Below are positions 308-44,881 of a stretch of DNA of 44,881 nt, one piece after another. A model generated the notes under the pieces. It worked only from the letters and a program-made list of their open reading frames with translations. It was not told the origin of the DNA and did not search any database. Source of the stretch: a virus; the IMG/VR virus record IMGVR_UViG_3300020202_000031, positions 1-44,881 of that record. The stretch is one strand, 5' to 3'. A program made the position numbers and the translations under genes. Each line of letters opens with the position of its first letter. Within the stretch, counting starts at the first letter, position 1.

Positions 308-1120
308 TTACTCGCCCGTGACCCAGAGCTCCGGAAGTTTTATTCTGAACTGATCGCTCTTCGTCTTCGTGAGTTTGAACCCTTCGCGACTCTTCACCAT
401 GGGGTGTGTTGCAACGAACGGACGAAGACGTTCTTTGAGCGAGTCAAGATGCCCCTCAAGGCGCTTGTACTCGATGAGCGATCTGCCGAAGTCTTGCAGC
501 AAGGCGTCCATCTGTTCGTCTTTCACTTCAATGAAATCTAGATCACTCATCTCGGGGGCCTCATCTTTCATGACATGGTTCAGCCAGAAGTTATCAACCG
601 CGGCTTCGATCTCAGCCTGGCGCACTAGGTCGTGTGCGACTTGGATGATATGCATCGTTTCATCTTCCGGGCGGTAGCTGATGAACTCGGCGAAAGCCGC
701 GCCAGAGACGAAGAGGTTCCACTGCACCTGGCACTCGTAGTGCGGAGGGATGATCCCCTTCCCTGCCTTCTCGTGATTGTCGCGGCCCATGCACTTAATC
801 TCAAGAAGCGAGTTGTCGTCGACGTTGTAGCCGTCGTCACTGCACAAGTGCCACGCCTTCTTCCCGTTCCAGGTGCGAGGGCGGTAGGCCTTAAGGCGCT
901 CGGTCTCGAGCTTCATGCGGCAGGCTTCTTCGCCAAGGTGTCCGCGAATGATGTGCGGGAGGCCTGAGAGATCTGGCGGTGTGATGCGCTTCGTCTTCTC
1001 TTGCCACAACTGATACACCGACTTGTAGGGCGAGAGCCCTAGGATTGATGCGACCTCCGAGCCGCCGATGCCTTTAACTCGCCTATCGTGCCATGCGCCG
1101 GATTTTTCGAATGCGCTCAT
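308..1120 (-). CDS. YqaJ-like viral recombinase-family exonuclease (PD-(D/E)XK)
   Basis: N-terminal GIGGSEVASILGLSPYKSVYQLWQEKT is the YqaJ signature. Size is 270 aa and it sits in a recombination module with a Sak4-type ATPase. Confidence 0.8.
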   Translation of the reverse strand: MSAFEKSGAWHDRRVKGIGGSEVASILGLSPYKSVYQLWQEKTKRITPPDLSGLPHIIRGHLGEEACRMKLETERLKAYRPRTWNGKKAWHLCSDDGYNVDDNSLLEIKCMGRDNHEKAGKGIIPPHYECQVQWNLFVSGAAFAEFISYRPEDETMHIIQVAHDLVRQAEIEAAVDNFWLNHVMKDEAPEMSDLDFIEVKDEQMDALLQDFGRSLIEYKRLEGHLDSLKERLRPFVATHPMVKSREGFKLTKTKSDQFRIKLPELWVTGE

Positions 1121-1596
1121 GCAAATCTCCCCCGAGCGTCTCGCGCTCGTGCTCTCCTGTTTTTCGCCTGTTCGGACAACGTTGCCCAGCGACAGTTATC
1201 TGCGCTGTAACCAAGGTTGTTATCTATACGCTCAAGCGTAAGTCCGTTTGACTCGCCCATGTCGGCTAAAAATCGTTCGAACGATGAGAGCCATGCTTCG
1301 CTTACGGTGATGCCGCGACCCCCATATCTCGGGTAGTCCTTTGCCTTCTCGTATGTGCATCGAGCTATCATGCCGCTCCAAATGCGGTGTTCTCGAGTCC
1401 TGGAGAGTCCGTGCCGGTACATCGGGTTCTTCTCTCCCGGCATTGGCGTTACCGGCTTATGACAGCCGCAGGACTTATTCTTCAACCCGGTGTGATAGTT
1501 AGTCTCAAACTCTTTGGAGCAAAGCGGGCATTCAAAGATTCCACGGTATCGATACTTCCCATCCGGTCGGATGAGAAATCTCTTAATGAGTCGCAT
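1117..1596 (-). CDS. Phage DNA-binding / HNH_3-AP2-like protein
   Basis: CxxC...CGC zinc-type N-terminus. C-terminal EHRIWSGMIARC...YGGRGITV...LERIDNNLGYSADNCRWATLSEQ matches a common phage family. ATGA overlap with the exonuclease gene. Confidence 0.5.
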   Translation of the reverse strand: MRLIKRFLIRPDGKYRYRGIFECPLCSKEFETNYHTGLKNKSCGCHKPVTPMPGEKNPMYRHGLSRTREHRIWSGMIARCTYEKAKDYPRYGGRGITVSEAWLSSFERFLADMGESNGLTLERIDNNLGYSADNCRWATLSEQAKNRRARARDARGRFA

Positions 1597-1618: not shown

Positions 1619-1951
1619 TTACTTGATTAATCCGCGAGCGCGATACCAAGCCTCAAGCTCGGCGACACTGCGAATGATCCGGTACGTACCGCCGCGTTTC
1701 TCGACTTGGTACTGAAACGCTTTCTGATGCTGCGACTGCACACCACCGGCCGCTTTGTACTCGATCCAGTCGACGCGCCCGTCTGGCAAGAAGCAGACAC
1801 AGTCAGGTAGGCCCTTCGCCTCGAAGGGCGAGAGAGCGCGATAAGCTTTAGCCTTCTCATCATACAGGCCCACGTTCTTCAGCTTGATCGCCCAGAAGCC
1901 CCAGTTGTTGAGTGCCTTCAGACACTCCCTCTCGATCTCCAGCTCCCTCAC
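1619..1951 (-). CDS. VRR-NUC domain nuclease
   Basis: GLPDCVCFLPDGRVDWIEYKAAGG..SQHQ fits the VRR-NUC PD..(D/E)XK...Q pattern. 110 aa, GTG start. Confidence 0.75.
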   Translation of the reverse strand: MRELEIERECLKALNNWGFWAIKLKNVGLYDEKAKAYRALSPFEAKGLPDCVCFLPDGRVDWIEYKAAGGVQSQHQKAFQYQVEKRGGTYRIIRSVAELEAWYRARGLIK

Positions 1952-5069: not shown

Positions 5070-7409
5070 ATGGCGCACAACGTCTACTCTACTTTTGCCG
5101 CGAGCTTCTACGAGCTCGGCTACAACGTGATCCCCGTCACGGGAAAATTCCCTGTGACGAAGGGCTGGAGTCACTGGTCAAAGCATCGCATGAGCCAGAT
5201 GGAATTCGATCAGCTCGTTGCAGAGAACATGTCGCGAGCAAACGGCATCGGCGTCGTCTGCGGACTGGGAGTCGTTGCAATTGACATCGACATCGATAAC
5301 CACGCGCTGATCGATCAGCTGCCGCCAACACCCATGAAGAAGTTCGGGAAGAAAGGTGTCACAGCCTTCTACCGGGTTGATGGTGAGTGGAGGTCACGTC
5401 GCGATACGCAAGTCATCCCGGTTGAGCTCCTCGCTGTCGGCGCGCAGACCGTGATGCCGCCGTCTATCTATCCGGGGCTTGATATCAAGAACGCCTCGCT
5501 TCGCTACCAGTGGGTGGGCGAATCAGATGGCCCGGTCGATATCTCAGAGCTCCCGCTTGTTCCTGATCCTCACGCTCTTTATGAGACGCTTAAGTCCTAC
5601 TGCGTGAAGCACTCGATTGTTCGCGACATGAGGGCGCTGCAAGAGCGCAATCCTGAGGCTGATCGCCTTGGCACCGAGACAGCTGTGCCCGAGTACGGCG
5701 TAGGTAATCGCAACAATTTTCTATCAAAGGTGGCGTATGCCATCGCATGCGACATGTACATCGATCATTTGAGTGAAGAGCAGGCAGCGATGAAGCTCCT
5801 CGAGGTCGACCGCAAGGTCCACGGAGCTCGTGCCTGGTTCGATGACAAGGAAGAGACCAAGGGCAAGAGCGCAGAGGACGCGGCTCGCGAGTTCTTCCAC
5901 CGAGCGTATAAGAAGGCCTCGCTTGATGATGAGATCATCGAGTTCAACCTGACGATCGAGGACACAGGCAACCCTGAGATCGAGGTGCCAGACAATAGCG
6001 TTGATACGCCGAAGTTCCTCTATAAACGCGCCACGACTCAAGAATGGCAGGACCTCATTAACGAAGTCCCGATCCTGCTCGAGTTCGCGAAGTTCCTCCA
6101 CTCGAGGACTCCGGACTACAGCCCGTGCCTCGCCATGGGCGCAGGGCTCTCTCTTCTCTCGATCCTCTCTTCCAACATCTACGAGTTCAACGGCATCAGA
6201 ACCAACCTCTACGCCTTCAACATCGCGCCGACTGGCTTCGGCAAGACCGCGCCCCAGCAGGCGCTCCATCAACTCCTGATGGCAACGCCTGGCGGTGAGG
6301 CTCTTCTGGGCTTTGAGTCCTACCGCTCAGCCCAAGCCATCTACACCGGGCTCAATCAGAACTCCCGCCATGCACGTATCGACATCCAGGACGAAGTCGG
6401 CGAGCTCTTCGTCAAAGCAGCCGACAAGAACAACTCCACCATGTCGACAGCCCCCGACGTCATGGCGAAGCTCTTCACCTCAAGCGCTACAACGCTCGGC
6501 AAGCAGGCCAAGATCAAGGGCGATAAGAACGACTCTCAGATCGTCCCGGTCTCGAACCCCTTCGTTACCTGGTTCGCCTCGACCACGCCGTCTGGCTTCC
6601 GTTCCTTCATCCTCAACCAAGCAATCGTCTCGAAGGGCCTGGCCGGCCGCGTTCTCTACTTCATCGAAGACCGTGACGCCATCCTCGCCTGGCGGGACAT
6701 GTCGATCTACTCAGCGTCAGTCAAAGACCCGCCTCCACACCTCATCAACTACGCAGCCGAGCTCCTGTCGCTTGCCGTTGACCTGGGCGACACAGGTGGC
6801 GGTGTCCTCGACTCAACAACGCTCAGGCCCATCAAGGCCCGGCCGATCAGGGCACCGAAGGATGTCGCAGACCATTACTCGACGCTTGTGCACGAGAAGA
6901 TCAGGACGGTTGGCGTCACGCTTCTTCGAGAGGTCCGAGACGTTGATCCCTTCGCCGAAGAGCCGCCGATGGCACGGATCCTGGGTCAGGGGCCTGTGCT
7001 CTTCGCCAAGCTCTGTGCGCTCTACTGGCTTGGCCACGGGCGCTGGGCTGCACCGCTCAACCGCCAAGCAGTCGACTGGGCATACCGTGTGTACGAGGCG
7101 TCGCTCGCTAACGTCGAGTACGTGTTGGCGTCTGAGTCGCATGACGTGCAGGCTATCCGCTTCCAGAAGTCGATTGAGAACTGGCTCATGCAGCACTCCG
7201 ACCGATACCACCGGGGGGATAACCTCAAAGCCAAGGTCGGCTACTTCTGGAAGAAGATCATCGGCCGCCAGCCGACGGTTCCGGAGATCGACGGGTACTT
7301 CAAATCGCTCCTCAACACGGGCGTTATCGCTGACGCCGGACACGATAAGAGCGGTCGCCGGGTGTACTCGATCCCCCGACCTGAGCTTCAGGAGACGCTC
7401 GAAAACTAA
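5070..7409 (+). CDS. Bifunctional primase-polymerase (Prim-Pol) fused to a DUF3987-type P-loop helicase
   Basis: N-terminus YNVIPVTGKFPVTKGW and VVAIDIDID (DxD) fit Prim-Pol. A central PriCT-like segment follows, then the P-loop APTGFGKTAP. 779 aa. Confidence 0.8.
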   Translation: MAHNVYSTFAASFYELGYNVIPVTGKFPVTKGWSHWSKHRMSQMEFDQLVAENMSRANGIGVVCGLGVVAIDIDIDNHALIDQLPPTPMKKFGKKGVTAFYRVDGEWRSRRDTQVIPVELLAVGAQTVMPPSIYPGLDIKNASLRYQWVGESDGPVDISELPLVPDPHALYETLKSYCVKHSIVRDMRALQERNPEADRLGTETAVPEYGVGNRNNFLSKVAYAIACDMYIDHLSEEQAAMKLLEVDRKVHGARAWFDDKEETKGKSAEDAAREFFHRAYKKASLDDEIIEFNLTIEDTGNPEIEVPDNSVDTPKFLYKRATTQEWQDLINEVPILLEFAKFLHSRTPDYSPCLAMGAGLSLLSILSSNIYEFNGIRTNLYAFNIAPTGFGKTAPQQALHQLLMATPGGEALLGFESYRSAQAIYTGLNQNSRHARIDIQDEVGELFVKAADKNNSTMSTAPDVMAKLFTSSATTLGKQAKIKGDKNDSQIVPVSNPFVTWFASTTPSGFRSFILNQAIVSKGLAGRVLYFIEDRDAILAWRDMSIYSASVKDPPPHLINYAAELLSLAVDLGDTGGGVLDSTTLRPIKARPIRAPKDVADHYSTLVHEKIRTVGVTLLREVRDVDPFAEEPPMARILGQGPVLFAKLCALYWLGHGRWAAPLNRQAVDWAYRVYEASLANVEYVLASESHDVQAIRFQKSIENWLMQHSDRYHRGDNLKAKVGYFWKKIIGRQPTVPEIDGYFKSLLNTGVIADAGHDKSGRRVYSIPRPELQETLEN

Positions 7410-7710
7410 GGAGGAGCTATCCCGCTGCAATTGCTCGGGATAGCGTCCGTTCCTACGATTTCCTGCCTAAAACCCCTATAGAGAGGAGAGGCTGAAAAAG
7501 CCGGACGAGGGGGGGGTCTTTAGGTATATTAATAAAAAAACCCCCTATATATCTCTCTATAAGAATAAGAACTCAGTAACTTAGAACTGCCTGGCTGGCC
7601 ACTAGGCGCTGGAATGGTTTCCGGTAGTTGGCCGCAGGAAACTGACTAAATTACCTAAAATTGCCACACTGCGTTAATATAAAAATGTCGCAATAGGTGT
7701 CGCGATCGGT
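7410..7710. other. Convergent AT-rich intergenic spacer (terminator and/or origin candidate)
   Basis: No ORF. Contains a G8 run, the AT-rich block taggtatattaataaaaaaa, the inverted repeat TATAGAGAG (7477-7485) / CTCTCTATA (7553-7561), and the words CTAAATTAC / CTAAAATTG. Confidence 0.3.
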
Positions 7711-7953
7711 TCAGGAGCCGACGACCTTCTTGCACTTTGAGAGCTGGGTTGAGACGCGTACAAGCTGCGTTGGCCCAGCCTTCTTAAGCTCTGGCTTGAT
7801 GGGCTCGATGTGAACCTCGCGGTCGTTCAGACCTGCCCACCAGCCACCCATATAGACGATGCGCCCTACCCCACGGCGGATGATGTGGCTCTCGTACTGG
7901 ACGATGTCGCCTACGGCTATCGTCGCATCAACTGCGGCGGCCTTCTTACTCAA
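7711..7953 (-). CDS. Hypothetical protein (about 80 aa; start uncertain)
   Basis: This is the 3' part of tracked ORF 7711-8076. A TTG at 7953 overlaps the stop of the upstream gene. The longer N-terminal extension would overlap the better-supported ABA-sandwich ORF. Confidence 0.4.
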   Translation of the reverse strand: MSKKAAAVDATIAVGDIVQYESHIIRRGVGRIVYMGGWWAGLNDREVHIEPIKPELKKAGPTQLVRVSTQLSKCKKVVGS

Positions 7954-8308
7954 TAGTAACTCCGGCGTATCGAAGCGAGCCCAAGCAGATCGCTCGAGGC
8001 TCTGAGTCAGTCCACGACCCTTCGAATCCATCTCCGCGCAGTCGGTAGATGCAACCACCGTCGGGCCCGCGGTCAAAGTCGATATGCATCTGTGGTGATC
8101 GGCCCGCTTGTCTTAGCCGGTCGCTCAACTCTAGAAGCACATCGAAGGCTGCATGCATGTCCGTGGCGTACGGCTTCGGATCGGGACCATAGGGCCCTCG
8201 CACATGGGCCGTTACCCCCTGCAGCTCCACTGAGGGCACGGAAAGCGGGAGGTGCATGAACTCGCTGTGCACCAGCTGGGAGATGAGAGCATCGTCCGGT
8301 CGGTTCAT
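7946..8308 (-). CDS. Phage ABA-sandwich-domain-like protein
   Basis: KPYATDMHAAFDVLLEL...EPRAICLGSLRYAGV matches the recalled pattern of the Phage_ABA_S family (pYStD..aAw.v..kl ... AIC.AAL.A.G). Confidence 0.5.
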   Translation of the reverse strand: MNRPDDALISQLVHSEFMHLPLSVPSVELQGVTAHVRGPYGPDPKPYATDMHAAFDVLLELSDRLRQAGRSPQMHIDFDRGPDGGCIYRLRGDGFEGSWTDSEPRAICLGSLRYAGVTIE

Positions 8309-8550
8309 GTCAGCTGCTCCCTGTCGACTAAGAGCGCCGACACCACGTTCAATAGTTCATACTTCTCTCTCAAGTCCTTAACCTCCCTCTTGAGCATGGC
8401 GATAGTTTGCCGGTCGCTCGGCTTCCGTTGCTTGTTCTTTGTTGCTCTTGCATTTCGGATCTTCGACATGAGGTTCGTTCTCATCGTGGTGCGATCCGAA
8501 AACAAGATGTGGAAAAAAAATCGTGGTTGAGCGAGCTCATCGCGGTGCAC
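8305..8550 (-). CDS. Small basic protein (about 81 aa)
   Basis: An in-frame GTG at 8550 is preceded by aaggagg 9 nt upstream. The tracked TTG start at 8607 has no SD. The C-terminal half is a charged helix. ATGA-type overlap with the downstream gene. Confidence 0.4.
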   Translation of the reverse strand: MHRDELAQPRFFFHILFSDRTTMRTNLMSKIRNARATKNKQRKPSDRQTIAMLKREVKDLREKYELLNVVSALLVDREQLT

Positions 8551-8711
8551 GTAAGAGCACCTCCTTACGAGGGAGATGGGGCTTAGGTCGCCGTTGATGA
8601 CGAACAATTCATGAGTTGCGTCGACGACACGGTGCCGCTCGAAAACAGTTTTCGTTGAGCGTGAAGCGCACTTGCCTGAGAGACAAGTGGTCGTGGGATG
8701 TTGACCAATGT

Positions 8712-9278
8712 CTACGACGCCCGACGGCGCTTGAACGCGTTGAGCACGTCGTTATGGCGTAGACTCATCTCGATCTTGCGCACGTATGCCATGGTGGATG
8801 AAATGTTCTTGTGCCCAAGGTGGTCTTTCAGGAACAAGATGTCCTTACTTCCGGAATACAGGAATGCTGCGAAGGCTGACCTGAGTGAGTGAAGCGAGCT
8901 GCCCTGAGGCATACGAAGCCTCCGCTTGTACTTGGCGTAGAGCTTGCGAAGGGAGACCTTGCGGCTCTCGATGAGGTCAGCGTCCGACTGGTGGCCGCCA
9001 AGCCACTCGTAGGTGCGGAGATAGCGTCTGAGCTGGTGAGCGAAGTCAGGAGGCAGTGGGACAGGATGGTCGAGTGATCCTTTAACAGCGGTAATCTCGC
9101 ACACAGCGCGCTTTGATGAGACGTGGATGCAGTCCTCGGTCAAGGTCACCATCTCGTGTGTGCGCCCACCAAGACGCAGGAAGGCCTCCAGCACGAGCCG
9201 GTCGTTCGGGTCCTTGATGTATCGCTCGAGGTTCTCGAGGAGTGTTGAGGCTTGCTCAGGACTTAGGTTTAGAGCCAC
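8712..9278 (-). CDS. Minimal tyrosine site-specific recombinase (catalytic domain only)
   Basis: The catalytic set is present: R (GGRTHEM), K (AVKGS), HxxR (HSLRSAF), H (LGHKN), Y (STMAYV). At 188 aa there is no room for an N-terminal arm-binding domain. Confidence 0.75.
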   Translation of the reverse strand: MALNLSPEQASTLLENLERYIKDPNDRLVLEAFLRLGGRTHEMVTLTEDCIHVSSKRAVCEITAVKGSLDHPVPLPPDFAHQLRRYLRTYEWLGGHQSDADLIESRKVSLRKLYAKYKRRLRMPQGSSLHSLRSAFAAFLYSGSKDILFLKDHLGHKNISSTMAYVRKIEMSLRHNDVLNAFKRRRAS

Positions 9279-9429
9279 GGCGTGCGTCCTCCTCGTTAGA
9301 AGCGTTCTTCGAGCGGTCCTTGGTGCGTTCGCGCCTTAAGCGTGTCTCGTCCAGCACACGATCCACGCGGTTGTTGAGCTCCCTGAGCCAAGAGGTTTTG
9401 ATCGGGGGCTTTGGCGTCTTAGGACTCAT
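9256..9429 (-). CDS. Small basic protein (57 aa, below the ORF-track cutoff)
   Basis: My own translation: MSPKTPKPPIKTSWLRELNNRVDRVLDETRLRRERTKDRSKNASNEEDARRGSKPKS. ATGA overlap with the stop of the upstream gene at 9426-9429. Confidence 0.35.
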   Translation of the reverse strand: MSPKTPKPPIKTSWLRELNNRVDRVLDETRLRRERTKDRSKNASNEEDARRGSKPKS

Positions 9430-9785
9430 CGTGGACGGCCTTTCTTGCGAGCCCTCGGCGTGTCAGCGTCCCTCATCCGCTTGATAGCGCGCGCTACGTC
9501 AGCTGCCTTCGCCCCGGTGATCTGAGACACCCACACCACGATATCTTCATCCTTGTAGTGTTTGAGAGCATCGACGAACCGGTCAACGGCGTGCGCTCTA
9601 ATGGTAGATACGTCAGCAGCGCCGGAGTCGATAAGGTGGCGCACATCCTTCACTCCTTTACTCACGGCCTTGAGGCCTTGTACGGCGACCTGCAGGCGCT
9701 GAATGATCTCTTCGCTGAGCCTGGCCATGCTAGCGACTTCCTTTGATGTGAACGGCTTCGTATCGACAGGTGATGTTTTTCTCAT
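9426..9785 (-). CDS. Hypothetical protein (119 aa), first gene of the recombinase mini-operon
   Basis: ORF with a coding-like composition. No recognisable motif. Confidence 0.5.
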   Translation of the reverse strand: MRKTSPVDTKPFTSKEVASMARLSEEIIQRLQVAVQGLKAVSKGVKDVRHLIDSGAADVSTIRAHAVDRFVDALKHYKDEDIVVWVSQITGAKAADVARAIKRMRDADTPRARKKGRPR

Positions 9786-10558
9786 GCGTGGAGTCCCCTT
9801 GGGCTTTGGTGGTTAATGGCTCAGGCCTATGCATTCTTCGTTCCTCTCGCCTTGAGCTGACAAGGCATGGCTACGAAGATTCGAACGTTCGTAGCGTTTC
9901 TTTGCGGCATAAACAAGATGACTCTTATCGATTGGCGTTCATGATGTGCGGTCAATGTTTACTCGCACTCGCTTATTGTTGTGGGCGAGCGCACGACGTC
10001 ATCCACGACGCATCCCCTTACTCAGGTTACAGTTTCACGTGAAACAGTTTTACTTAGGTACTTGATGTGCAACTCGCTCGCCACGATTTCCGACAAGCGA
10101 AGTGCGTGGAATAATGGCGCTAAAGTAATTCATCGCGCGTAGCGCATGCGGAACTTCTGAACGGATTCATCGCAGCAACGCGTGAGCTCGAGCCAATATG
10201 AAGGGTTCATTAAGTAATTTCTGAGTGTAAAACTAATGAGCAAAACGAAGGTGAATCTGAACCTAAAATTCTAAAACTCTCGAGCTAGGTTTCTAAAAAC
10301 ACCATGTTTTCCAATACTTACCCGCTCGCTTATAGCCCTACCCGAGCGATCTGCACACAAATAGCCTGCGCGGGCTATGTGCGCACATGCAGTTTTCATA
10401 TGAAGGTTTCGTTTCGACTGCTGAGACCCGGGGGTGGGGGTGTTTTTTTCGATGAAAAATTGTATTTGGTCGCGCCTCCCACAAAAAATCGGAAAAACAA
10501 AAAAACCGACGCGCCTTACCTTACTCAAGTAGGTACTCAATCGTAATCTGTTCCCACG
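9786..10558. promoter_or_regulatory. 0.77-kb noncoding divergent region (switch / origin / ncRNA candidate)
   Basis: No credible ORF and visibly lower GC. Many palindromes: CGAACGTTCG (9883-9892), GTTTCACGTGAAAC (10032-10045), ATAGCC-N6-GGCTAT (10361-10378), ATGTGCGCACAT (10377-10388). Also TTACT-type words and a T7 run at 10442-10449. Confidence 0.5.
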
Positions 10559-10909
10559 ATGCCTGTACCCATCCGCAGAACGTATATCGTTGAGTCAGCC
10601 CCTGTCACAGAGCCCGCACAGCAAGAGCCGTTAAACACGGTTGTAGAGCGTGTAGCAGCCCAAATTCCTCTGCCATCCCCGCTCCCATTGGTGGTGCAGC
10701 AAGTCGAGATCCAGCTAATTTCTCGCGCACTCGAGTCCTCCGGCTATTGCGTAAGTAAAGCCAGCGGAGTACTCGGTATCTTACGTACTACGTTACTCGA
10801 TAAGGTACACAAGTACGGCCTGAAGCAAGAATTGCCAGGCTATGCGGCCAAGCTCAGGGAGCGAGCTCGTCGCAGACAGTACAAAGAGACCGGGGTGTGG
10901 GAGCCATGA
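10559..10909 (+). CDS. Fis-type HTH DNA-binding protein
   Basis: C-terminal VEIQLISRALESSGYCVSKASGVLGILRTTLLDKVHKYGL matches the HTH_8/Fis pattern (E..lI..AL....n.s.AA..LGi.R.TL..K...yGl). No SD precedes the ATG. Confidence 0.65.
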   Translation: MPVPIRRTYIVESAPVTEPAQQEPLNTVVERVAAQIPLPSPLPLVVQQVEIQLISRALESSGYCVSKASGVLGILRTTLLDKVHKYGLKQELPGYAAKLRERARRRQYKETGVWEP

Positions 10910-11010
10910 TCGATACAATCGGCCATTCGCCATTTGAAGCCTTGAGCTTGGTGTCAGCCACAGCTCTGTTTTCCATGTTTTTCATCAGCATCATCAGAAA
11001 GGACATCTAA
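10906..11010 (+). CDS. Hydrophobic micropeptide (34 aa)
   Basis: My own translation: MIDTIGHSPFEALSLVSATALFSMFFISIIRKDI. ATGA overlap upstream and TAATG overlap downstream. It exactly fills the gap between the flanking genes. Confidence 0.3.
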   Translation: MIDTIGHSPFEALSLVSATALFSMFFISIIRKDI

Positions 11011-12767
11011 TGACCCCATCTCTCAGACTTCTGGCGCTTGCCACCACCACGGCGATCGCCTGCAACGACGTAACGCCTCCGACAAGCGTCGTTACCGCCC
11101 CTCCCCCCTCCTCTACGGTGGGTGGAACGATCAAACTCGAGGCCGCAGCAAGCGATGACTCAGCCGTTGCTCGCGTTGAGATGATGATCGACGGAAAACT
11201 CGTCGCAACGGAGAAAGAAACGCCTTATTCGGCCACTTTCGACACGAAAACACTCCAAGACGGCGCCCATACGCTTGTTGCGATCGCGTTTGACGAGAAA
11301 GGCAACAAGACGGCGTCTGCTCCGGTCAGCTTCTCGGTCAAGAACGTCGTACAACCCCCCGTTGACCCGCCTACCCCGCCAGTTGCTGGCTGGACTGACT
11401 TCAAGCTCGCTCCCGACGCGATCAAGATCCATGTATCATCCTCTTTGGGTCTCGATTCAAACGACGGGAGCGAGTCGAAGCCTCTTAAGACCCTCAAAGC
11501 CGCTTATTCGAAGCTCCGGAACGGCAAGCCCGACCACTTGGTGCTTAAGCGTGGCGACACGTTCAAGGAAGCCTTCCCTTACTGGGAGAAGTCAGGTCGC
11601 TCAGCGACTGAGCCCATGGTGATCGGCGCGTATGGCGCTGGCACTGCCCGCCCTGTGGTGTCATCTGACGGTAACGTCCTCTCGACCCGCTCAAACATCA
11701 GCTTCATCGCAGTCCAGGGCCTGCGCTTCACGAGCCTCAACCGCGAGCCAGGCAGCTCGACGTTCAATACGAACGTGTCGAGTGACGCAGCCATCCGCTG
11801 GATGTCTAGAGGTCAGTTCCTTTTGCTTGAAGACATGCTTATCGACTTCCATCGCGTCGGTATCGTCTCAGAGCAGCCCGAAGCCCAGATGGAAGGCGCG
11901 CCGAAGGGCTGGACGAAGTGCGCAAGCTACTTCAAGAACCTCAAGATCCGCCGCTCAGTGATCGCGAACAACTGGAGCTACCCGTCAACCACGGAGGCTC
12001 GCAAGGGCGGCCATTCACAAGGTGCATATCTCCAGTGCGTTGATGGTCTCACCATGGAAGAGAACTTCTGGGACTCAAACGGCTACCACAAGGCCGTCTC
12101 TGGCGCTGTGCCCACGCAGTTCAACCACAACGTTTACTTGAACGCGAAATCAAAGAACGTCGTGGCCAAAGGTAACGTCTTCTCTCGAGGAGCAGCGACT
12201 GGCATCCAAGTCCGCACGGGCGGGATCTTTGAGAACAACTTAGTTGTCCAGAACCCTCAAGGCATCACCTATGGCATCGTTCGCGGCGGGAACAACCCGG
12301 AGGATCCGCAAGTTGTTCAAGGTGGCGTGACTGGCACGATCAAGGGGAACGTGTTCTTGGAAGGTGTTGACCTCGACGCCAATAACCCGCGCGCTCTTGC
12401 CGCTCAGATCGGCAATCTCAAGGACGTCGAGATGAGTGATAACGTCTTCGCCCACTACTCGCACATCGGCAAGCCCTACAACCACGGGTCAGTTGCGATC
12501 GACTGCGGCAACGGCATTGGACTCGGTAAGCTTGTCATGAAGAACAACGCGACGTGGAAGTGGGAACCCTGGCTCACGACCTCTGGCCCTTGCAAGAACA
12601 AGCCTGAAGAGTCTGGCACGGTGAAGACGAAGGCGATGGAGAAGAAGCTCGCTGACTACGCTCCTGACTTTTTTGAAGGCGCACGTAAGCAGTCGCGACT
12701 CACTTGGAATCAGAAGTACACGGCGACTGAGGCGGTCAAATACTTCCGCGCTCAGTTCGGTAAGTAA
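11010..12767 (+). CDS. Exported (possible lipoprotein) Ig-like plus right-handed beta-helix protein, polysaccharide lyase/hydrolase-like
   Basis: Signal-like N-terminus MTPSLRLLALATTTAIAC. A Big_7-type Ig domain (VGGTIKLEAAASDDSAVARVEMMIDG...PYSATFDT...GAHTLVAIAFDEKGN). Then beta-helix repeats (NHNVYLN, ENNLVVQN, GNVFLEG). Confidence 0.7.
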   Translation: MTPSLRLLALATTTAIACNDVTPPTSVVTAPPPSSTVGGTIKLEAAASDDSAVARVEMMIDGKLVATEKETPYSATFDTKTLQDGAHTLVAIAFDEKGNKTASAPVSFSVKNVVQPPVDPPTPPVAGWTDFKLAPDAIKIHVSSSLGLDSNDGSESKPLKTLKAAYSKLRNGKPDHLVLKRGDTFKEAFPYWEKSGRSATEPMVIGAYGAGTARPVVSSDGNVLSTRSNISFIAVQGLRFTSLNREPGSSTFNTNVSSDAAIRWMSRGQFLLLEDMLIDFHRVGIVSEQPEAQMEGAPKGWTKCASYFKNLKIRRSVIANNWSYPSTTEARKGGHSQGAYLQCVDGLTMEENFWDSNGYHKAVSGAVPTQFNHNVYLNAKSKNVVAKGNVFSRGAATGIQVRTGGIFENNLVVQNPQGITYGIVRGGNNPEDPQVVQGGVTGTIKGNVFLEGVDLDANNPRALAAQIGNLKDVEMSDNVFAHYSHIGKPYNHGSVAIDCGNGIGLGKLVMKNNATWKWEPWLTTSGPCKNKPEESGTVKTKAMEKKLADYAPDFFEGARKQSRLTWNQKYTATEAVKYFRAQFGK

Positions 12768-12933
12768 GAAACGGCAGACGGGGCACATCTATGGCTCCCA
12801 CAGCTCCAAGATCCCCGTCTTTCGACCCGGCATCCTCAGGTTAAGCCTGACCGCTCACCGGGGAGCGGTCTGACAACCGGAACAGCTTTGGTGACAGCCC
12901 GGAGAGACGGGCGCTTTTGAAGAAGGAGTTTTC

Positions 12934-13206
12934 ATGATCCCAGTAGCACCGAAATCGATCCAAGGACTCGCGAGCGCTGTTGCTCGTCGCGAAGGCAAGA
13001 AGAGCCAGGCCCGCATTGGCGAGGTTCGAGAGATCCTTGGCATCGTCTCTGATCTTCTGATCGAGACGATGGTCGTGGGCGAGAAATCAGTCGAGCTCCC
13101 GATCGCCGTTGTCCTCTACGAGGCAGGCGTTGCGCGCAAGAAGAAGAAAGCCAAGCCCAAGGGTGGCTTCGCGACCATCACCAAGATCAAGCAGCGAAGG
13201 AAGTGA
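12934..13206 (+). CDS. Small protein with a lysine-rich tail (90 aa)
   Basis: SD aaggag lies 8 nt upstream of the ATG. The C-terminus ARKKKKAKPKGG...KIKQRRK is strongly basic. No family recognised. Confidence 0.45.
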   Translation: MIPVAPKSIQGLASAVARREGKKSQARIGEVREILGIVSDLLIETMVVGEKSVELPIAVVLYEAGVARKKKKAKPKGGFATITKIKQRRK

Positions 13207-13245
13207 GGCGGAGCAGACCTTAAAAAAAAGAAAGGTCTGTTACCT

Positions 13246-14379
13246 ATGAAATCGATACTGTTCTCAACTCTTCTCACCGCGATCTCGGCTCAAGCAGTCG
13301 AGCCGACTGTCTTCTGCCCGAGCCCACTCGTGGCTGCGTGCGTGAGCCGCGAGACTCCTCCGCCACCTCCTCCTCCTGTTCCCGTGCCGACTCCTCCCCC
13401 CTCTGGCGGTGTCGTCATCTCGCCTTCTGACTCGCTTCAAGCGGCTGTCGATAAGGGCGGCACCGTGGTTCTCAAGGATGGCGAATACAAGGGGCCAGTC
13501 CGGATCAAGAAGGATGGCGTCACACTCGTCGCTCAAAACGCAGGCAAGGCTGTGATCAAGGCCGACTCAGGCGACAACCTCATCATCGACGCCTCGAACG
13601 TCACTGTTCGCGGGCTCGTCCTTCGCGGTGGCGGTGTGAGTGGAAAAGAATCTCACCATAACCATTTGGCTGCTAACCGCGTCGAGCGCGCGAGAGAGGA
13701 GATCCTCCTTGAAGACCTCACGATTGAAAAAGCAAGAGGTGTTGGACTGGCTCTTAACGGTGACAAGATCACAGCACGTCGACTTGTTGCGCGAGATAAC
13801 GGAGCAGCTGGAATCGGCGGGAGTCACGGAGAGGAGATACTTCTCGAAGACTCTAAGATCTTCGGTAACAACCTCATCGAGAAGAGAAGTGACGGTGGAG
13901 GTGGGAAGTTCACGCGTACGGATCGCGTGGTCCTTCGACGTGTTGAAGCCTATGGAAACGTAGGGCCTGGCATCTGGTTCGATATCTGGAACACGAACAC
14001 GACCATTGAAGACTGCTACTCCCACGACAACCTGGGCACGTCTAACATCCACGGTAAGGGGATCATGCTTGAGCTTCATGGTGGAGATAAGTCAGGCAAG
14101 CTCTCTGGCAAGTCGCGCCTCATCCGAAACCGGGTTGAGAACAACGACGTAGTGTCAGGGCGCTCGAAGGACCATCAGCGCGGGTTCAACATCTCGTCTG
14201 CTGCTGGCATTGAGATGATCGATAACATCGTTGCAGGTGGCGACACGCTCAACCTCAAAGACGCCTCAGGGCGCGAGATCAAGACACAAGACATCACCAT
14301 CCGGGGAACGAAGTTCCTCTCTGGTGGCCGCATCAACTGGGACGGGGCTTCTAAGTCCTGCTGCAAGATCGAGGAGTAG
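13246..14379 (+). CDS. Secreted right-handed parallel beta-helix protein
   Basis: Sec-type signal MKSILFSTLLTAISAQA|VEP, a proline linker PPPPPPPVPVPTPPP, then beta-helix repeat signatures (VTVRGLVLRGGG, ARDNGAAGIGG, KIFGNN, AYGNVGPGIWF). Confidence 0.7.
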   Translation: MKSILFSTLLTAISAQAVEPTVFCPSPLVAACVSRETPPPPPPPVPVPTPPPSGGVVISPSDSLQAAVDKGGTVVLKDGEYKGPVRIKKDGVTLVAQNAGKAVIKADSGDNLIIDASNVTVRGLVLRGGGVSGKESHHNHLAANRVERAREEILLEDLTIEKARGVGLALNGDKITARRLVARDNGAAGIGGSHGEEILLEDSKIFGNNLIEKRSDGGGGKFTRTDRVVLRRVEAYGNVGPGIWFDIWNTNTTIEDCYSHDNLGTSNIHGKGIMLELHGGDKSGKLSGKSRLIRNRVENNDVVSGRSKDHQRGFNISSAAGIEMIDNIVAGGDTLNLKDASGREIKTQDITIRGTKFLSGGRINWDGASKSCCKIEE

Positions 14380-17614: not shown

Positions 17615-17980
17615 TCAGTCGTCCGACGACTTCGAGCCGTCAGAGCCCTTCTTGCGATAGACGCCAAAGGCGACGCGCATGAGATTGAGCTTCTCTTTCT
17701 CAGGAGTGGGGCCGAAGAGGATCTTCTCGAGCATATCGAGAACGAACTGCGCTGTTACGTCTTCAGGAGTGATTGCTTCTTTGCGAAGCGCGCCTCGCGG
17801 CTTCCCTTTGCCAAGGTTGAGTACTTTGTACAGTCGATTGCCGACGAACCACTGGTCCGGGGTTTTGCCCGTGGGAGTTTTGTATCCCTCTTTTGCGAGG
17901 ATCTTAGCTATCTGCGCAGCGCTTTTTCCCTCCTTGCGTAACTCAGCAATACGCAGATCCGGATCCTTATCATCTTTCAT
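17615..17980 (-). CDS. Orphan leftward HTH protein (121 aa), repressor candidate
   Basis: Met37 of the tracked ORF. RIAELRKEGKSAAQIAKILAKEGYKTPTGKTPDQWFVGNRLYKVL resembles the HTH/recombinase-domain motif. It is the only leftward gene between two rightward blocks and has no SD. Confidence 0.5.
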   Translation of the reverse strand: MKDDKDPDLRIAELRKEGKSAAQIAKILAKEGYKTPTGKTPDQWFVGNRLYKVLNLGKGKPRGALRKEAITPEDVTAQFVLDMLEKILFGPTPEKEKLNLMRVAFGVYRKKGSDGSKSSDD

Positions 17981-18001
17981 AGTCTTAAAACTGTAAATTA
18001 C

Positions 18002-18301
18002 GTGGAAAGGGGGCGTCAAGTGCAGAACGGGAGAGGGTACACATTTGGTACAGAAAGGCAGCTTCGTGCTGCGGAGGAGTACTACCAAAAGGTACTCACC
18101 ATCAACGCGCTCAGGAACGCCGCCCTTCGCAGCTGCCTAAATATAGCACATACGAGTCTGGAGGAGCTGCTTCAGATCACGGCCGTTGAAGAACTGCACT
18201 GCAAGGTTCGTGACACGATCCAGTCCATCGAGGCCAGGCTGGCTGAGGGGGTGGCAAAATCGACCGTAGCCCCGACGAGCGTCACGGTGGAAGTGTTGTG
18301 A
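18002..18301 (+). CDS. Hypothetical protein (99 aa), first gene of the late block
   Basis: GTG start. No recognisable motif. Confidence 0.4.
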   Translation: MERGRQVQNGRGYTFGTERQLRAAEEYYQKVLTINALRNAALRSCLNIAHTSLEELLQITAVEELHCKVRDTIQSIEARLAEGVAKSTVAPTSVTVEVL

Positions 18302-42251: not shown

Positions 42252-42270
42252 CCCTTCTAGCGGCGTGATT

Positions 42271-42310
42271 TTGTAACTGGTTTGTAACTGGTTTTTTTTG
42301 AAACCAGTTG
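42271..42310 (+). repeat. attP arm repeat E1 (GTAACTGGTTTGTAACTGGTTTTTTTTGAAACCAGTT)
   Basis: A tandem GTAACTGGTTT half-repeat plus the hairpin AACTGGTTT/AAACCAGTT. It is a direct repeat of E2 and lies 20 nt after the last late gene. Confidence 0.6.
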
Positions 42311-42441
42311 TGGATTACGAGTTTCAACTCCCCGTACGACTGTACGGTGCGTCATGAATACGTTAGTCGTGACGCACACTTACACGCACGGCCTCGTGTC
42401 AACATTACGAAACCTGTCCCGATCGCTTTCCCTCTAAATGA

Positions 42442-42488
42442 GATTTCTAATCAGATGGTCGCAGGTTCGAGTCCTGCCGGGCGTGCCA
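42442..42488 (+). other. attP core: 3' half of a tRNA-Arg(UCU)-like gene
   Basis: TTTCTAA (anticodon loop, TCT), TCAGA, TGGTC, GCAGG-TTCGAGT-CCTGC (T arm), CGGGCGT-G-CCA. It parallels the 3' half of E. coli argU as I recall it. No matching 5' acceptor or D arm lies upstream. Confidence 0.6.
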
Positions 42489-42534
42489 CAGAAAACCCAA
42501 TAATATCACTAATTAGAATGTTGGCAAAAGCCAC

Positions 42535-43713
42535 TCAGGCTTTTTCGCTTCGCTTTTTCGTAACTGGTTTATAACTGGTTTTTTTTGAACCAGAACCAGT
42601 TACACGAGATTCGGGTTCGAAGTTCAAACGGTCCGCGTGCTGACGGTAGTAGTCGCTAGAGATCGTTCCGTAGCGTTCCGCCATGCGTGGTGTTGCGTGT
42701 CCCAGCGCACGTTGGATTACAGGCGTCTCAGCGCCCGCCATACGCAAGAACGAGGCGAAGGTATGTCTGAGGCCGTGGAACGTGATCGTCGCGCCTGTGG
42801 CCTTCCTGAAGGCCTTCATGCGGCTATTGAGCTGGTGGTAGCCCATCCCTGTCCCGTCGGTGTGCGAGATGACCCAAGCCTCAGGCGATTTGAAGGGCAT
42901 CCTCTCAAAGTGCGCCTTGAGAAACGCGGAGAGCTTAGCCGGCAGTAACCCTTCGGCGATTGGCCCACCCTTACGACCCTCGACGATCTTGTTACTCCGC
43001 TGGAGCCTGCGCCGGCGCACGAAGATCACTCCCTTATCGAAGTAGACGTCCCGCCGTTGAAGCGCCAACGTTTCCTGCGTCCTCAGCCCGGAGTACACCA
43101 TGAGCATAAACGCCGCGTGCAGCATGTAATCAAAGGTCCGGGCCCCATCGAGAAGCAGCTGCACCTGGCTTCGATCGAGAATCACGTTCTCAAGATCAAA
43201 GGTTTTGATCCGCTCCTCAAAGCCGGAGATGCGGTCGACCGGGTTGACAGTTATCTCGCCCTCTAACAGCAAGTCTTTGAGAAACACACGGACGAGAGCC
43301 AATGCCCGATTGTGCTGGATCTTGCCGGACTTCTCAGCGATCTCATCGAAGATGGGGCGCAGATCTTCTTCGCGCAGGCGAGCGGGCGCGAGGTAACCAA
43401 TCTTCCTATCAAAGAACTTCGTCCAGACACGCCGCTCTTCCTTCACCGCGTCTGGCGACTTAGGGCCCTTTCGCTTCTTGATCTGCGTGCGCCCTAGCCC
43501 CTTCTCCCTGTCCTGCATCCACCGTTCGAAACGGGCCGACGTCGACTCTCGCGTGTTCTCGATTCGAGGGCGCACGACGCCGCCTTGGGAGGCCTTCCTC
43601 TCCATCTTGTGGCGGAGCTTCGCCTCCAAGTATTCGGCTTCGGTATCGAAGTACTTCTGGAACGGCTTACCGTTTAGATCGTGACCTTGAAAACGCCAGT
43701 ACTTGCGTGCCAT
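42535..43713 (-). CDS. int: Tyrosine integrase (phage integrase family, full length)
   Basis: 392 aa with an N-terminal SAM-like/arm-binding region. Catalytic residues: R (LRTQETL), HGLRHTFAS, LGHATP, ERYG. Adjacent to the tRNA-like attP. Confidence 0.85.
   Translation of the reverse strand: MARKYWRFQGHDLNGKPFQKYFDTEAEYLEAKLRHKMERKASQGGVVRPRIENTRESTSARFERWMQDREKGLGRTQIKKRKGPKSPDAVKEERRVWTKFFDRKIGYLAPARLREEDLRPIFDEIAEKSGKIQHNRALALVRVFLKDLLLEGEITVNPVDRISGFEERIKTFDLENVILDRSQVQLLLDGARTFDYMLHAAFMLMVYSGLRTQETLALQRRDVYFDKGVIFVRRRRLQRSNKIVEGRKGGPIAEGLLPAKLSAFLKAHFERMPFKSPEAWVISHTDGTGMGYHQLNSRMKAFRKATGATITFHGLRHTFASFLRMAGAETPVIQRALGHATPRMAERYGTISSDYYRQHADRLNFEPESRVTGSGSKKTSYKPVTKKRSEKA
42559..42606 (+). 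repeat. attP arm repeat E2 (GTAACTGGTTTATAACTGGTTTTTTTTGAACCAGAACCAGTTAC)
   Basis: Direct repeat of E1. It lies within the last 24 codons of the integrase gene on the opposite strand. Confidence 0.6.
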
Positions 43714-44032
43714 GCACCGGGCGGCTTAGTAGCCAGCGCTCGACCGAGTCAATCGTAGCCTTCCTACGCTTACCCACCCAGTAGGTAGGAATTTCGCCCG
43801 ACTGAAACGCCTCGCGCACGACATCGACCGAAACGTCGCCAATATGTGCGGCGATCGTCGGTGCGCTGTAGAGCTTAGTAGCAGTCTCAAGCGTTAGCTG
43901 ACTTGCCCTGCGGCCATGCGACTGAAGGCGCTTAGGCTTGCTAGCGCGGCGGAGCTTTCGATCTTCGGCCTCCCGCTCCTCGCGCTCGACTTGTTCTGGT
44001 GATTTGTCCCACGGAATTACCCTTTCCCCCAT
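43667..44032 (-). CDS. xis: Excisionase-type HTH_17 protein
   Basis: LTLETATKLYSAPTIAAHIGDVSVDVVREAFQSGEIPTYWVGKRRKATIDSVERWL fits the MerR-like excisionase HTH. Directly upstream of int. The start codon abuts a TTACTCAAGTA motif. Confidence 0.6.
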   Translation of the reverse strand: MGERVIPWDKSPEQVEREEREAEDRKLRRASKPKRLQSHGRRASQLTLETATKLYSAPTIAAHIGDVSVDVVREAFQSGEIPTYWVGKRRKATIDSVERWLLSRPVHGTQVLAFSRSRSKR

Positions 44033-44475: not shown

Positions 44476-44786
44476 GAGAGAACCCCCTTGATTGAGTTAC
44501 ATACTGCGCACGATGGTACGCAGTTCCCCCGGACGTATCCCCGTTGGTTATTAATTCTATCAAGACCGTGGACCTTTAGGTCGTTAGATTTTGCGTTCTG
44601 GAGCCGATATATATGTGATAGCGGCCTTGACGGCTCAGCACCGCAAAAGAAGCAAGGCCGAGTCACCAGATCAATGAACTCGCCAGTCTCAAGCTCAAAC
44701 GGGATCCCTCGCCCTCGGGCATCGTGTCCGGCTTTGTAATGGTGCTGGCGCGGCAGGCCGCGAAGCTGTTCTTCAGGCCTCTGCAA
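44205..44786 (-). CDS. HNH-type zinc-finger nuclease-like protein (3' end doubtful)
   Basis: Residues 1-101 carry CFFCG...GLDRINNQRGYVRGNCVPSCAVCNSIKG. The remaining ~90 aa are S/T/R/A low-complexity read out of frame across the HEXXH gene (271-nt overlap). Confidence 0.5.
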   Translation of the reverse strand: MQRPEEQLRGLPRQHHYKAGHDARGRGIPFELETGEFIDLVTRPCFFCGAEPSRPLSHIYRLQNAKSNDLKVHGLDRINNQRGYVRGNCVPSCAVCNSIKGVLSWGDLLGHLPKMLVGLASFATVRLNPSDSKSCVSVTDIESVSAARTMSLSTAQRSSFKASLSLASAAQASTRSTSTRRTKRTSRRRSSTS

Positions 44787-44881
44787 GCGCTCGGCTCCGC
44801 ATGATGGCTCTGTACTGCTCCAGCGTCATCTCGGGCCTGCGTTCTTCGAAGGACTCAACTTGTTCAACGGCGATTTCGCAC
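44755..44881. repeat. Terminal overlap, copy 2 (identical to 1-127)
   Basis: Exact 127-bp match to the window start. Confidence 0.95.

Follow-up and report, generated by a model that had tools for sequence, protein, structure and literature searches.

A second, catalytic-domain-only tyrosine recombinase in a tailed temperate phage: membership of a separate short clade and a candidate role in replicon housekeeping

The DNA analysed here, hereafter the window, is the entire virus record IMGVR_UViG_3300020202_000031 of IMG/VR (44,881 bp, CheckV completeness 100%). Annotation with PHROG/Pfam-type libraries gave a gene set typical of a tailed temperate phage, including a YqaJ exonuclease, a helicase, an AAA_24 protein, a protein similar to single-stranded DNA-binding proteins (SSB-like), a primase, a P22-like portal, beta-helix proteins, and a 392-aa integrase (Int). 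Besides this full-length Int (42,535–43,713, minus strand), the window encodes a second, minimal tyrosine recombinase of 188 aa (8712–9278, minus strand), which is distinct from the integration module, as a preliminary description of the DNA had proposed, and is the subject of this analysis. The arrangement given there for the surrounding genes was also confirmed: the recombinase lies third in a leftward string, after an open reading frame (ORF) of 119 aa (9426–9785, minus strand) and a basic ORF of 57 aa (9256–9429, minus strand), the latter being ATGA-coupled to the former (4-nt overlap) and overlapping the start of the recombinase by 23 nt. On the 3' side of the recombinase there is another small ORF on the same strand (8305–8607), of 100 aa if started from a TTG and about 59 aa from an internal ATG. 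No family match was obtained for either the 57-aa ORF or that at 8305–8607; the first has no homologue in related phages, and the second is not kept in them. The recombinase ORF starts with a GTG that is preceded, 8–9 nt upstream, by a strong Shine-Dalgarno sequence, and its frame is open for merely 207 codons from stop to stop. A core-binding domain therefore cannot hide upstream of it, and the short frame, together with the strong Shine-Dalgarno sequence before the GTG, argues that the catalytic domain constitutes the whole protein.

A core-binding domain that clamps the DNA is usually regarded as indispensable for tyrosine recombinases, FimB and FimE being the textbook exception. Despite its size, the window protein is apparently an active tyrosine recombinase, judging from its predicted active site and modelled fold. 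Its match to PF00589 scored 60.1 bits (cut-off 27.1, E = 3e-16) and spanned positions 3–168 of the 172 in the profile. The catalytic set R-K-H-R-H-Y, which had been read directly from the translation, is entirely present, and an alignment of 22 sequences (the window protein plus 21 relatives) showed that these residues, with the addition of E42, are invariant (R39, E42, K66, H130, R133, H156, and Y165). The protein also aligns with XerD and with an archaeal XerC-like protein across both catalytic boxes. An AlphaFold2 (AF2) model built with the family alignment reached a predicted local distance difference test score (pLDDT) of 96 and a predicted template modelling score (pTM) of 0.89; it begins at the first helices of the catalytic domain, with no N-terminal core-binding domain in its 188 aa, and Foldseek matched it with a probability of 1.00 to XerH, XerA, IntI4, the catalytic domains of the P2 and HP1 integrases, lambda Int, and Cre, with XerH and XerA among the top matches. 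Both the alignment and the model contain a long conserved helix after the catalytic tyrosine, which, by analogy with recombinases that form tetramers, may dock on a neighbouring subunit.

The family is large and short throughout. When 1.84 billion cluster representatives were searched exhaustively with HMMER, 1194 matches were returned, and the 17 best representatives were all of 168–192 aa, with identities of at most 41%. A FastTree tree with Shimodaira-Hasegawa-like (SH-like) support values was built from the 150 best matches plus FimB, FimE, XerC, XerD, and lambda Int, taken from annotated records (P1 Cre was left out, as it gave no match to the clade profile). The window protein fell on one side of a split with a support of 100 (99 in a second tree), together with rows of which all except one were of 215 aa or less (73 of 74), whereas FimB/FimE, XerC/XerD, lambda Int, and the window's own large Int fell across it. 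We define here as the "mini-Xer" clade those proteins of 160–215 aa on the short side of the split that have the conserved C-terminal helix after the catalytic tyrosine; the window protein has this length, this position, and this helix. Within the clade, it belongs to sub-clade 2 (43 rows, all of them viral or metagenomic), which is sister to sub-clade 1. At least 73 short clusters at 50% identity were counted among the best 150 matches, one sub-clade alone has 199 relatives in IMG/VR, and most of the neighbours found in the ESM Atlas, clusters of about 180 aa, are viral. The 20 family clusters that were looked up are all metagenomic, none of them carrying the name of an organism or of a specific function, and searches among INPHARED phages and PLSDB plasmids gave nothing beyond matches of about 27–37%, mostly annotated as integrases. 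Scans of genome and metagenome contigs for recombinase patterns gave no match.

Comparison with the NCBIfam models agreed with the trees. The scores ranked XerA (54.8 bits against a cut-off of 220) above XerC (48.4 against 335), XerD (38.9 against 330), XerS (31 against 267), the integron IntI models (28.5 against 265 and 20.9 against 435), and finally the Fim-type invertase model PRK09870/PRK09871 (16.9 against 222), all of them far under the respective cut-offs. Because of these scores and of the split in the trees, the protein is neither a Fim-type invertase nor an Xer orthologue nor an integron integrase, and its clade stands apart from theirs, with shortness as a built-in property; the phylogenetic placement proposed at the outset thus sets it apart from both Fim and XerC/XerD, with a support of 99–100. 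A protein so short and without N-terminal domains could also be the decaying remnant of a full-length integrase, an explanation to which we give next to no credit. It is effectively refuted by the length, kept at 168–192 aa in the 17 closest representatives, by the invariant active site and the high confidence of the model, and by the position of the gene, which is kept across the lineage as described below.

A split recombinase, in which the 119-aa and 57-aa ORFs would provide the core-binding domain in trans or by frameshift, was considered and rejected. Neither product has a homologue in any relative, and the 119-aa protein, for which another gene caller gives a version of 100 aa, is an ORFan that retrieved only itself among 5.8 billion clusters. 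Its AF2 model is all-helical and weak (pLDDT 73), and Foldseek found nothing for it at E <= 0.001. As a separate observation, the tail of this ORFan is basic, with an AT-hook-like G-R-P core preceded by a possible helix-turn-helix (HTH), features with which the protein could bind nearby AT-rich DNA.

The integration module from which the small recombinase is separate lies close to the other end of the window. The 392-aa Int (PF00589, 1e-21; PHROG integrase, 1e-39) is preceded upstream by a Xis-like HTH protein (43,667–44,032, minus strand; PHROG excisionase, 9e-6; HTH_17 with E = 0.0017, below the Pfam cut-off), and its attP (42,270–42,589) consists of a tRNA 3' end with T arm and CCA end (42,442–42,492) between two copies of an arm-type repeat of about 33 nt (42,270–42,302 and 42,557–42,589), the second of which overlaps the 3' end of int. 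With an arm-binding domain, arm sites, an attP that matches host sequence, and a Xis partner, the window Int has a complete system of its own. None of these lambda/P2-type features (arm-binding domain, arm sites, attP, or Xis) was found for the small protein, and there is no tRNA-like attP near its gene.

Related genomes showed that the two recombinases do not always go together. Two complete circular assemblies, G004 (41,129 bp) and G005 (42,064 bp), share their synteny with the window along the entire genome, from packaging to tail to replication. In both of them the small recombinase is the sole PF00589 match; no serine recombinase and no tRNA-like attP were found, and the Int-Xis-attP cassette is missing, so that the junction which holds Int and Xis in the window is reduced to about 130 bp in G004. 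The count was extended with ten phage genomes from sub-clade 1 (completeness of 90% or more in nine) and with a circular contig of 44,772 bp from the bin of a Halobacteriovoraceae metagenome-assembled genome (MAG). This contig (G006:C486, loci L107–L109; 141-bp end overlap, GC 0.41) is a circularly assembled phage only distantly related to that of the window (35% identity in the portal and 39% in the terminase), and it carries a small recombinase translationally coupled to an XRE-type HTH gene, in addition to an Int of 327 aa. Among the near-complete genomes, the small recombinase was present alone in nine of 13 and together with a full-length Int in the other four, the window included. The persistence of an intact gene in a phage that already has a whole Int module speaks against a role redundant with integration.

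The genomic position of the gene was compared in five viral contigs (L003–L007), whose recombinases are 33–39% identical to that of the window and lie in the same module. The order in L003, L005, L006, and L007 is recombinase, non-coding stretch, primase on the opposite strand, small HTH gene, AAA_24, and SSB-like gene, followed in L003 by a helicase; in L004 the position of the primase is occupied by a differently typed protein of 737 aa. The window primase (779 aa; 5070–7409, plus strand; PHROG DNA primase, 9e-32), like its counterparts across the lineage, adjoins the small recombinase, and between it and the recombinase gene string there is an origin-like region (7445–7710) formed by an AT-rich stretch with short repeats. 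Equivalent stretches were found downstream of the primase in L003 (6529–6876), L005 (7330–7700), L006 (6508–6860), and L007 (7310–7670), and in every contig the non-coding stretch has its own iteron family and an AT-rich run, the repeats of L007 being readable as DnaA-box-like. Such a composition suggests that the stretch may be the replication origin. The small recombinase is, then, a core syntenic early gene of this phage lineage, located by an origin-like region and the primase. The genes immediately upstream of it differ from phage to phage, being ORFans, lipoproteins, or a small protein with the pattern "KHT.GPW". This last family, with an N-terminal "KHT.GPW" and a later "AAPDM.EAL", recurs in three phages that are otherwise dissimilar, each time upstream of the small recombinase (L005, 5406–5738; L007, 5379–5708; and the MAG-binned contig G006:C486, 7728–7982).

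The non-coding DNA on both sides of the window gene contains palindromes which the preliminary description had regarded as related to each other. The first one, perfect and of 15 bp (8640–8654), is located 57 nt downstream of the recombinase stop codon and has no equivalent in the relatives, while the second, of 14 bp (10,032–10,051, including a 9-mer common to the first), is located in a 773-bp intergenic region between divergent operons. The palindromes are indeed there, but their relatedness is no better than chance after allowing for the post hoc choice: the shared 9-mer occurs three times in the window against 0.22 expected, but was picked post hoc, and a 13-mer core with up to three mismatches has seven matches against 9.5 expected. 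There are no grounds for linking either palindrome to the enzyme, and that at 10,032–10,051, placed amid promoter-like TACT..AGTA motifs, is more likely regulatory. A third, imperfect 9-8-9 palindrome (9870–9895), 85 nt upstream of the operon, was listed as a candidate site only; read as 11-6-11, it matches at eight of 11 positions, with about 0.9 such sites expected by chance in 773 bp, and it is no evidence for a site. No Rfam family reached its gathering score, and a CRISPR-repeat-like Rfam match on the 15-bp palindrome (E = 0.47) was dismissed.

Inverted and direct repeats were also searched. No inverted-repeat pair above chance was detected either in positions 5500–13,500 of the window or genome-wide, in scans that repeats of 9 bp or less would escape, which bears out the earlier impression by eye that no long pair is present. 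This result bears on the possibility that the protein is a FimB/FimE-type invertase flipping a promoter or gene segment, whether near 8.5–10.6 kb or in another part of the phage. A protein of this size class without a core-binding domain, as in FimB/FimE, and the 773-bp gene-free, palindrome-rich region between divergent operons would fit such a switch, but no inverted repeats bracket a segment locally or genome-wide, the invertase model gave 16.9 bits against the required 222, FimB and FimE stand across the 99–100 split, and neither the intergenic region nor the neighbouring genes are conserved in relatives that keep the recombinase. The DNA-inversion switch raised in the preliminary description is, in view of all this, very improbable.

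Among direct repeats, two att-like flanking candidates were discarded: a 10-mer in the window is at about chance level, and a 13-mer in L005 sits before two start codons. The latter resembles the recurrent promoter-like TACT..AGTA motif of the window and looks like a promoter or leader motif. Independently of this, a lineage-wide motif with the core CTTACT was observed 15–30 nt before start codons of early operons (L005, 5235–5247 and 6473–6485; window, 10,016–10,027, 10,049–10,063, and 10,519–10,531), and is probably a promoter or leader element common to these phages. These data are relevant for a cassette- or moron-exchange recombinase, integron-like, that would insert or remove accessory genes in the adjacent variable region. 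A hypervariable stretch does adjoin the gene, the distance to the EEP gene being about 9 kb in the window versus 1.7 kb in G004, and the ORFan neighbours are different in every relative. Nevertheless, the variable genes are not bounded by repeated sites of a recombination type, and the 13-nt direct repeat flanking the gene set of the recombinase in L005 has the promoter-like or leader-like appearance just described, so that exchange of this kind seems improbable.

The fact that no pair of target sites was found could also mean that the protein is no recombinase at all. It might instead regulate by binding DNA, as YopR of SPbeta does, or nick or relax DNA site-specifically in replication or late transcription, and for this the location of the gene among early and regulatory genes and the translational coupling with the XRE-type HTH gene in the MAG phage could be invoked. 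However, YopR retains only three of the seven catalytic residues, whereas all seven are invariant across the clade, which also keeps the long conserved C-terminal helix beyond the catalytic tyrosine, and we assign only a small chance to a function of this sort.

A search for cellular homologues provided a different view of the family. The family profile was run against 401 genomes of Bdellovibrionota, the phylum of the MAG, and about 80 of them contained a match of 112–145 bits in a short open frame, mostly of 174–218 aa, whereas Xer-like frames of 290–340 aa reached only 85–100 bits. In eight genomes (GC 0.35–0.51) the gene, of 175–183 aa, was found amid housekeeping-type genes and outside any prophage; the N-terminal sequences of the neighbours resemble those of fatty-acid synthesis proteins, ribosomal protein L32, and an amino-acid dehydrogenase. 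The chromosomal gene was always divergent from a conserved gene of about 160–230 aa in these eight genomes, and 150–250 bp upstream of its start there is a conserved 28-bp palindrome of the 11-6-11 type, perfect in L204 and L199 and with 9–10 of the 11 positions matching in the six other loci. A matrix built from the eight sites detected a site of 19–25 bits in nine of ten loci outside the building set. The chromosomal proteins form a tight, short-branched cluster (SH-like support of 99) inside sub-clade 1, together with the protein of the MAG phage. The gene lies at 48–52% of the length of several single-contig genomes and at 25%, 65%, and 86% in others; local GC skew was uninformative about the location at the terminus that the 48–52% position suggests.

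A chromosomal module made of a recombinase of about 178 aa, a 28-bp palindrome, and a divergent gene is observed in loci L204–L211 and L194–L203, additional to XerC/XerD-like genes, and we found no description of it in the literature searched. In B. bacteriovorus HD100, XerC/XerD and a dif sequence at 1.94 Mb that differs from this palindrome were predicted by Carnoy and Roten (PMC2731167; PMC11318664), because of which we regard the 28-bp palindrome as dif-like in design and not as the canonical dif.

The reading that we favour, with a probability of roughly 40%, is simple-site recombination in the style of Xer or Cre, independent of Int and associated with replicon housekeeping (monomerisation or cyclisation). 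The small recombinase would act on a short core site, as in Xer/dif or Cre/lox and without arm sites, and its action would be separate from the Int-Xis-attP(tRNA) module; its most likely job would be the housekeeping of the circular phage replicon, converting dimers or terminally redundant DNA into monomer circles. Housekeeping is preferred because the gene coexists with a full integration module, adjoins the origin-like region, and was not seen integrated where examined; both inversion and tRNA integration are less likely. The chromosomal members with an 11-6-11 palindrome and the top NCBIfam scores (XerA, XerC, and XerD) suggest an Xer/dif-like ancestry, which speaks in favour of the same reading.

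A number of observations weigh against it. None of the scans made revealed a target site in this phage. In local and genome-wide palindrome scans (arms of 10 nt or longer, spacers of 5–9 nt) of the window, G004, G005, and the MAG phage, no lox- or dif-like palindrome was seen close to the gene, and the matrix of the host site found nothing in these four genomes. No clear excess of palindromes was detected beside the gene in 39–40 non-identical phage loci either, where the best lox/dif-type palindrome within 250 bp downstream was not stronger than in random windows (p = 0.54) and those upstream were marginally stronger (mean 6.9 versus 6.6, p = 0.03). Regarding the context, the gene of many sub-clade 1 phages and of the MAG phage is located upstream of presumed terminase subunits, named from their sizes or from BLAST similarity, with no recognisable origin beside it. 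No ParA/ParB was found in the window, G004, or G005, and hence there is no sign in them of a prophage maintained stably as a plasmid, for which dimers would have to be resolved, nor is it obvious that a phage with headful packaging needs monomer circles in lytic growth. The status of sole recombinase in nine of 13 genomes also fits an integrase. Finally, the chromosomal module may offer no settled model, and the dif site predicted for XerCD in B. bacteriovorus has another sequence (PMC2731167).

The most serious of the other explanations, possible although doubtful in our view, is that the protein is the basal integrase of the lineage, recombining a short phage core site with a palindromic dif-like site of the host in the manner of integrative mobile elements exploiting Xer (IMEX), with the difference that the enzyme is its own. 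In that case, the window phage would integrate with two different specificities. IMEX of the CTXphi type integrate at dif by Xer-type chemistry (PMC4246890); these elements use the XerCD of the host and carry no recombinase, unlike the window phage, which has its own enzyme and no dif-like attP that could be found. The presence of the small protein as sole recombinase in nine of the 13 near-complete genomes, the lack of ParA/ParB for episomal maintenance, and the conserved palindrome of the cellular relatives, which could serve as attB, are consistent with such an integrase. So is the only score that the host-site matrix gave among 38 other phage loci, a host-type half-site of 20.7 bits placed 430 bp upstream of the recombinase gene of L144. 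This match is not significant, however (0.125 expected, a level reached by five of 40 shuffles), and host-type sites are absent from the window, G004, G005, and the MAG phage. Moreover, G004 and G005 have no tRNA-like attP, the gene is kept intact beside a complete Int-Xis-attP module in four of the 13 genomes, and the MAG contains no convincing second copy of the DNA surrounding the recombinase of its phage. Integrated copies were not encountered elsewhere: no contig among the 20 family clusters that were looked up exceeds 42.6 kb, two peptide patterns from the closest relatives of the window had no copy in 185,579 species genomes, and the 18 Bdellovibrionota loci examined from the 401 genomes searched were of chromosomal type, by context or palindrome, and never a prophage.

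The protein was also compared with known systems. Its best sequence and fold matches are to Xer proteins, which occur in modules with a linked site (XerS/difSL, XerH/difH, and archaeal XerA/dif), and the cellular members of the clade adjoin their 28-bp 11-6-11 palindrome as single-recombinase Xer modules do (PMC2731167 for XerS/difSL). Unlike the Xer enzymes, the window protein has no core-binding domain and scores far below the cut-offs, and the phage copy has no detectable linked site; the XerC/XerD and different dif predicted for B. bacteriovorus further distinguish the cellular mini-Xer module from the canonical dif system. E. coli FimB and FimE are likewise proteins of about 200 aa with only the catalytic domain and the full R-K-H-R-H-Y set, but they form a separate clade, their model scores 16.9 against 222 bits, and no invertible segment was found in the phage. 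Cre/loxP of phage P1 is the model for the proposed role, as a simple tyrosine recombinase encoded by a phage and not serving chromosomal integration; Cre is annotated as "cyclization recombinase" in the P1 record, with lox about 430 bp upstream of cre. It differs in its 343 aa, its core-binding domain, and its lack of a match to the clade profile, and no site of the 13-8-13 type was found beside the window gene. Finally, tyroviruses, like the window phage, have multiple tyrosine recombinases in one genome, several distinct ones of which some lie outside the lysogeny module, and an 11-6-11 site was reported adjoining one of three recombinases (PMC9703825). Tyroviruses are much larger (160–170 kb), and their three recombinases have XerC- or XerD-type domains in CDD, one of them with an N-terminal phage-integrase domain in addition (PMC9703825).

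We tentatively propose, as an idea that may well prove wrong, a new domain-less class of recombinases, mini-Xer, that would work on short palindromic cores with no core-binding clamp, which Bdellovibrionota would maintain as a chromosomal module beside its own 28-bp site, besides XerCD/dif, and which the phages of these bacteria would have adopted as a core gene. The phage copy would then process the phage replicon or dock at the 28-bp host site. If true, tailed phages that infect predatory bacteria would possess, through this class, another layer of site-specific recombination that does not depend on Int. These half-size enzymes form a set separate from and much larger than FimB/FimE, and uncultured phages of about 40–45 kb carry them as core genes. 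If they do act on sites this short, the enzymes would offer very compact tools for recombination and would reveal a recombination step of the phage life cycle apart from classical integration, and the chromosomal pair of gene and palindrome offers a concrete substrate for the biochemistry of the family.

Several data suggest that this phage group infects predatory bacteria. The tRNA fragment in the attP of the window is 98% identical over 47 nt to the end of a tRNA gene in the Bdellovibrionota genome G140 and 80–95% identical to those of other genomes of the phylum; no match to the window portal protein was found among isolated phages. A Bdellovibrionota host is likely, but not proven, for the window phage because of this tRNA-end match, the chromosomal homologues of the small recombinase, and the related phage binned in the MAG.

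Some other features of the window were recorded. PADLOC gave no defence match. A solitary antisense gene (17,615–18,088, minus strand) gave a weak match to the "Recombinase" domain of large serine recombinases (E = 0.004, below the cut-off), without a catalytic resolvase domain. The early-left operon includes an HNH endonuclease (1117–1596, minus strand) and a VRR-NUC-like endonuclease (1619–1951, minus strand; a weak match, below the Pfam cut-off), and if the latter were a junction resolvase, the small recombinase would no longer be the sole candidate of the phage for that job. As for the ends of the record, the 127-bp "direct terminal repeat" is an exact overlap between positions 1–127 and 44,755–44,881, of the same length in G004 and of 121 bp in G005; in the window and G004 it looks like an assembler k-mer overlap marking circularity, and not a physical terminal repeat.

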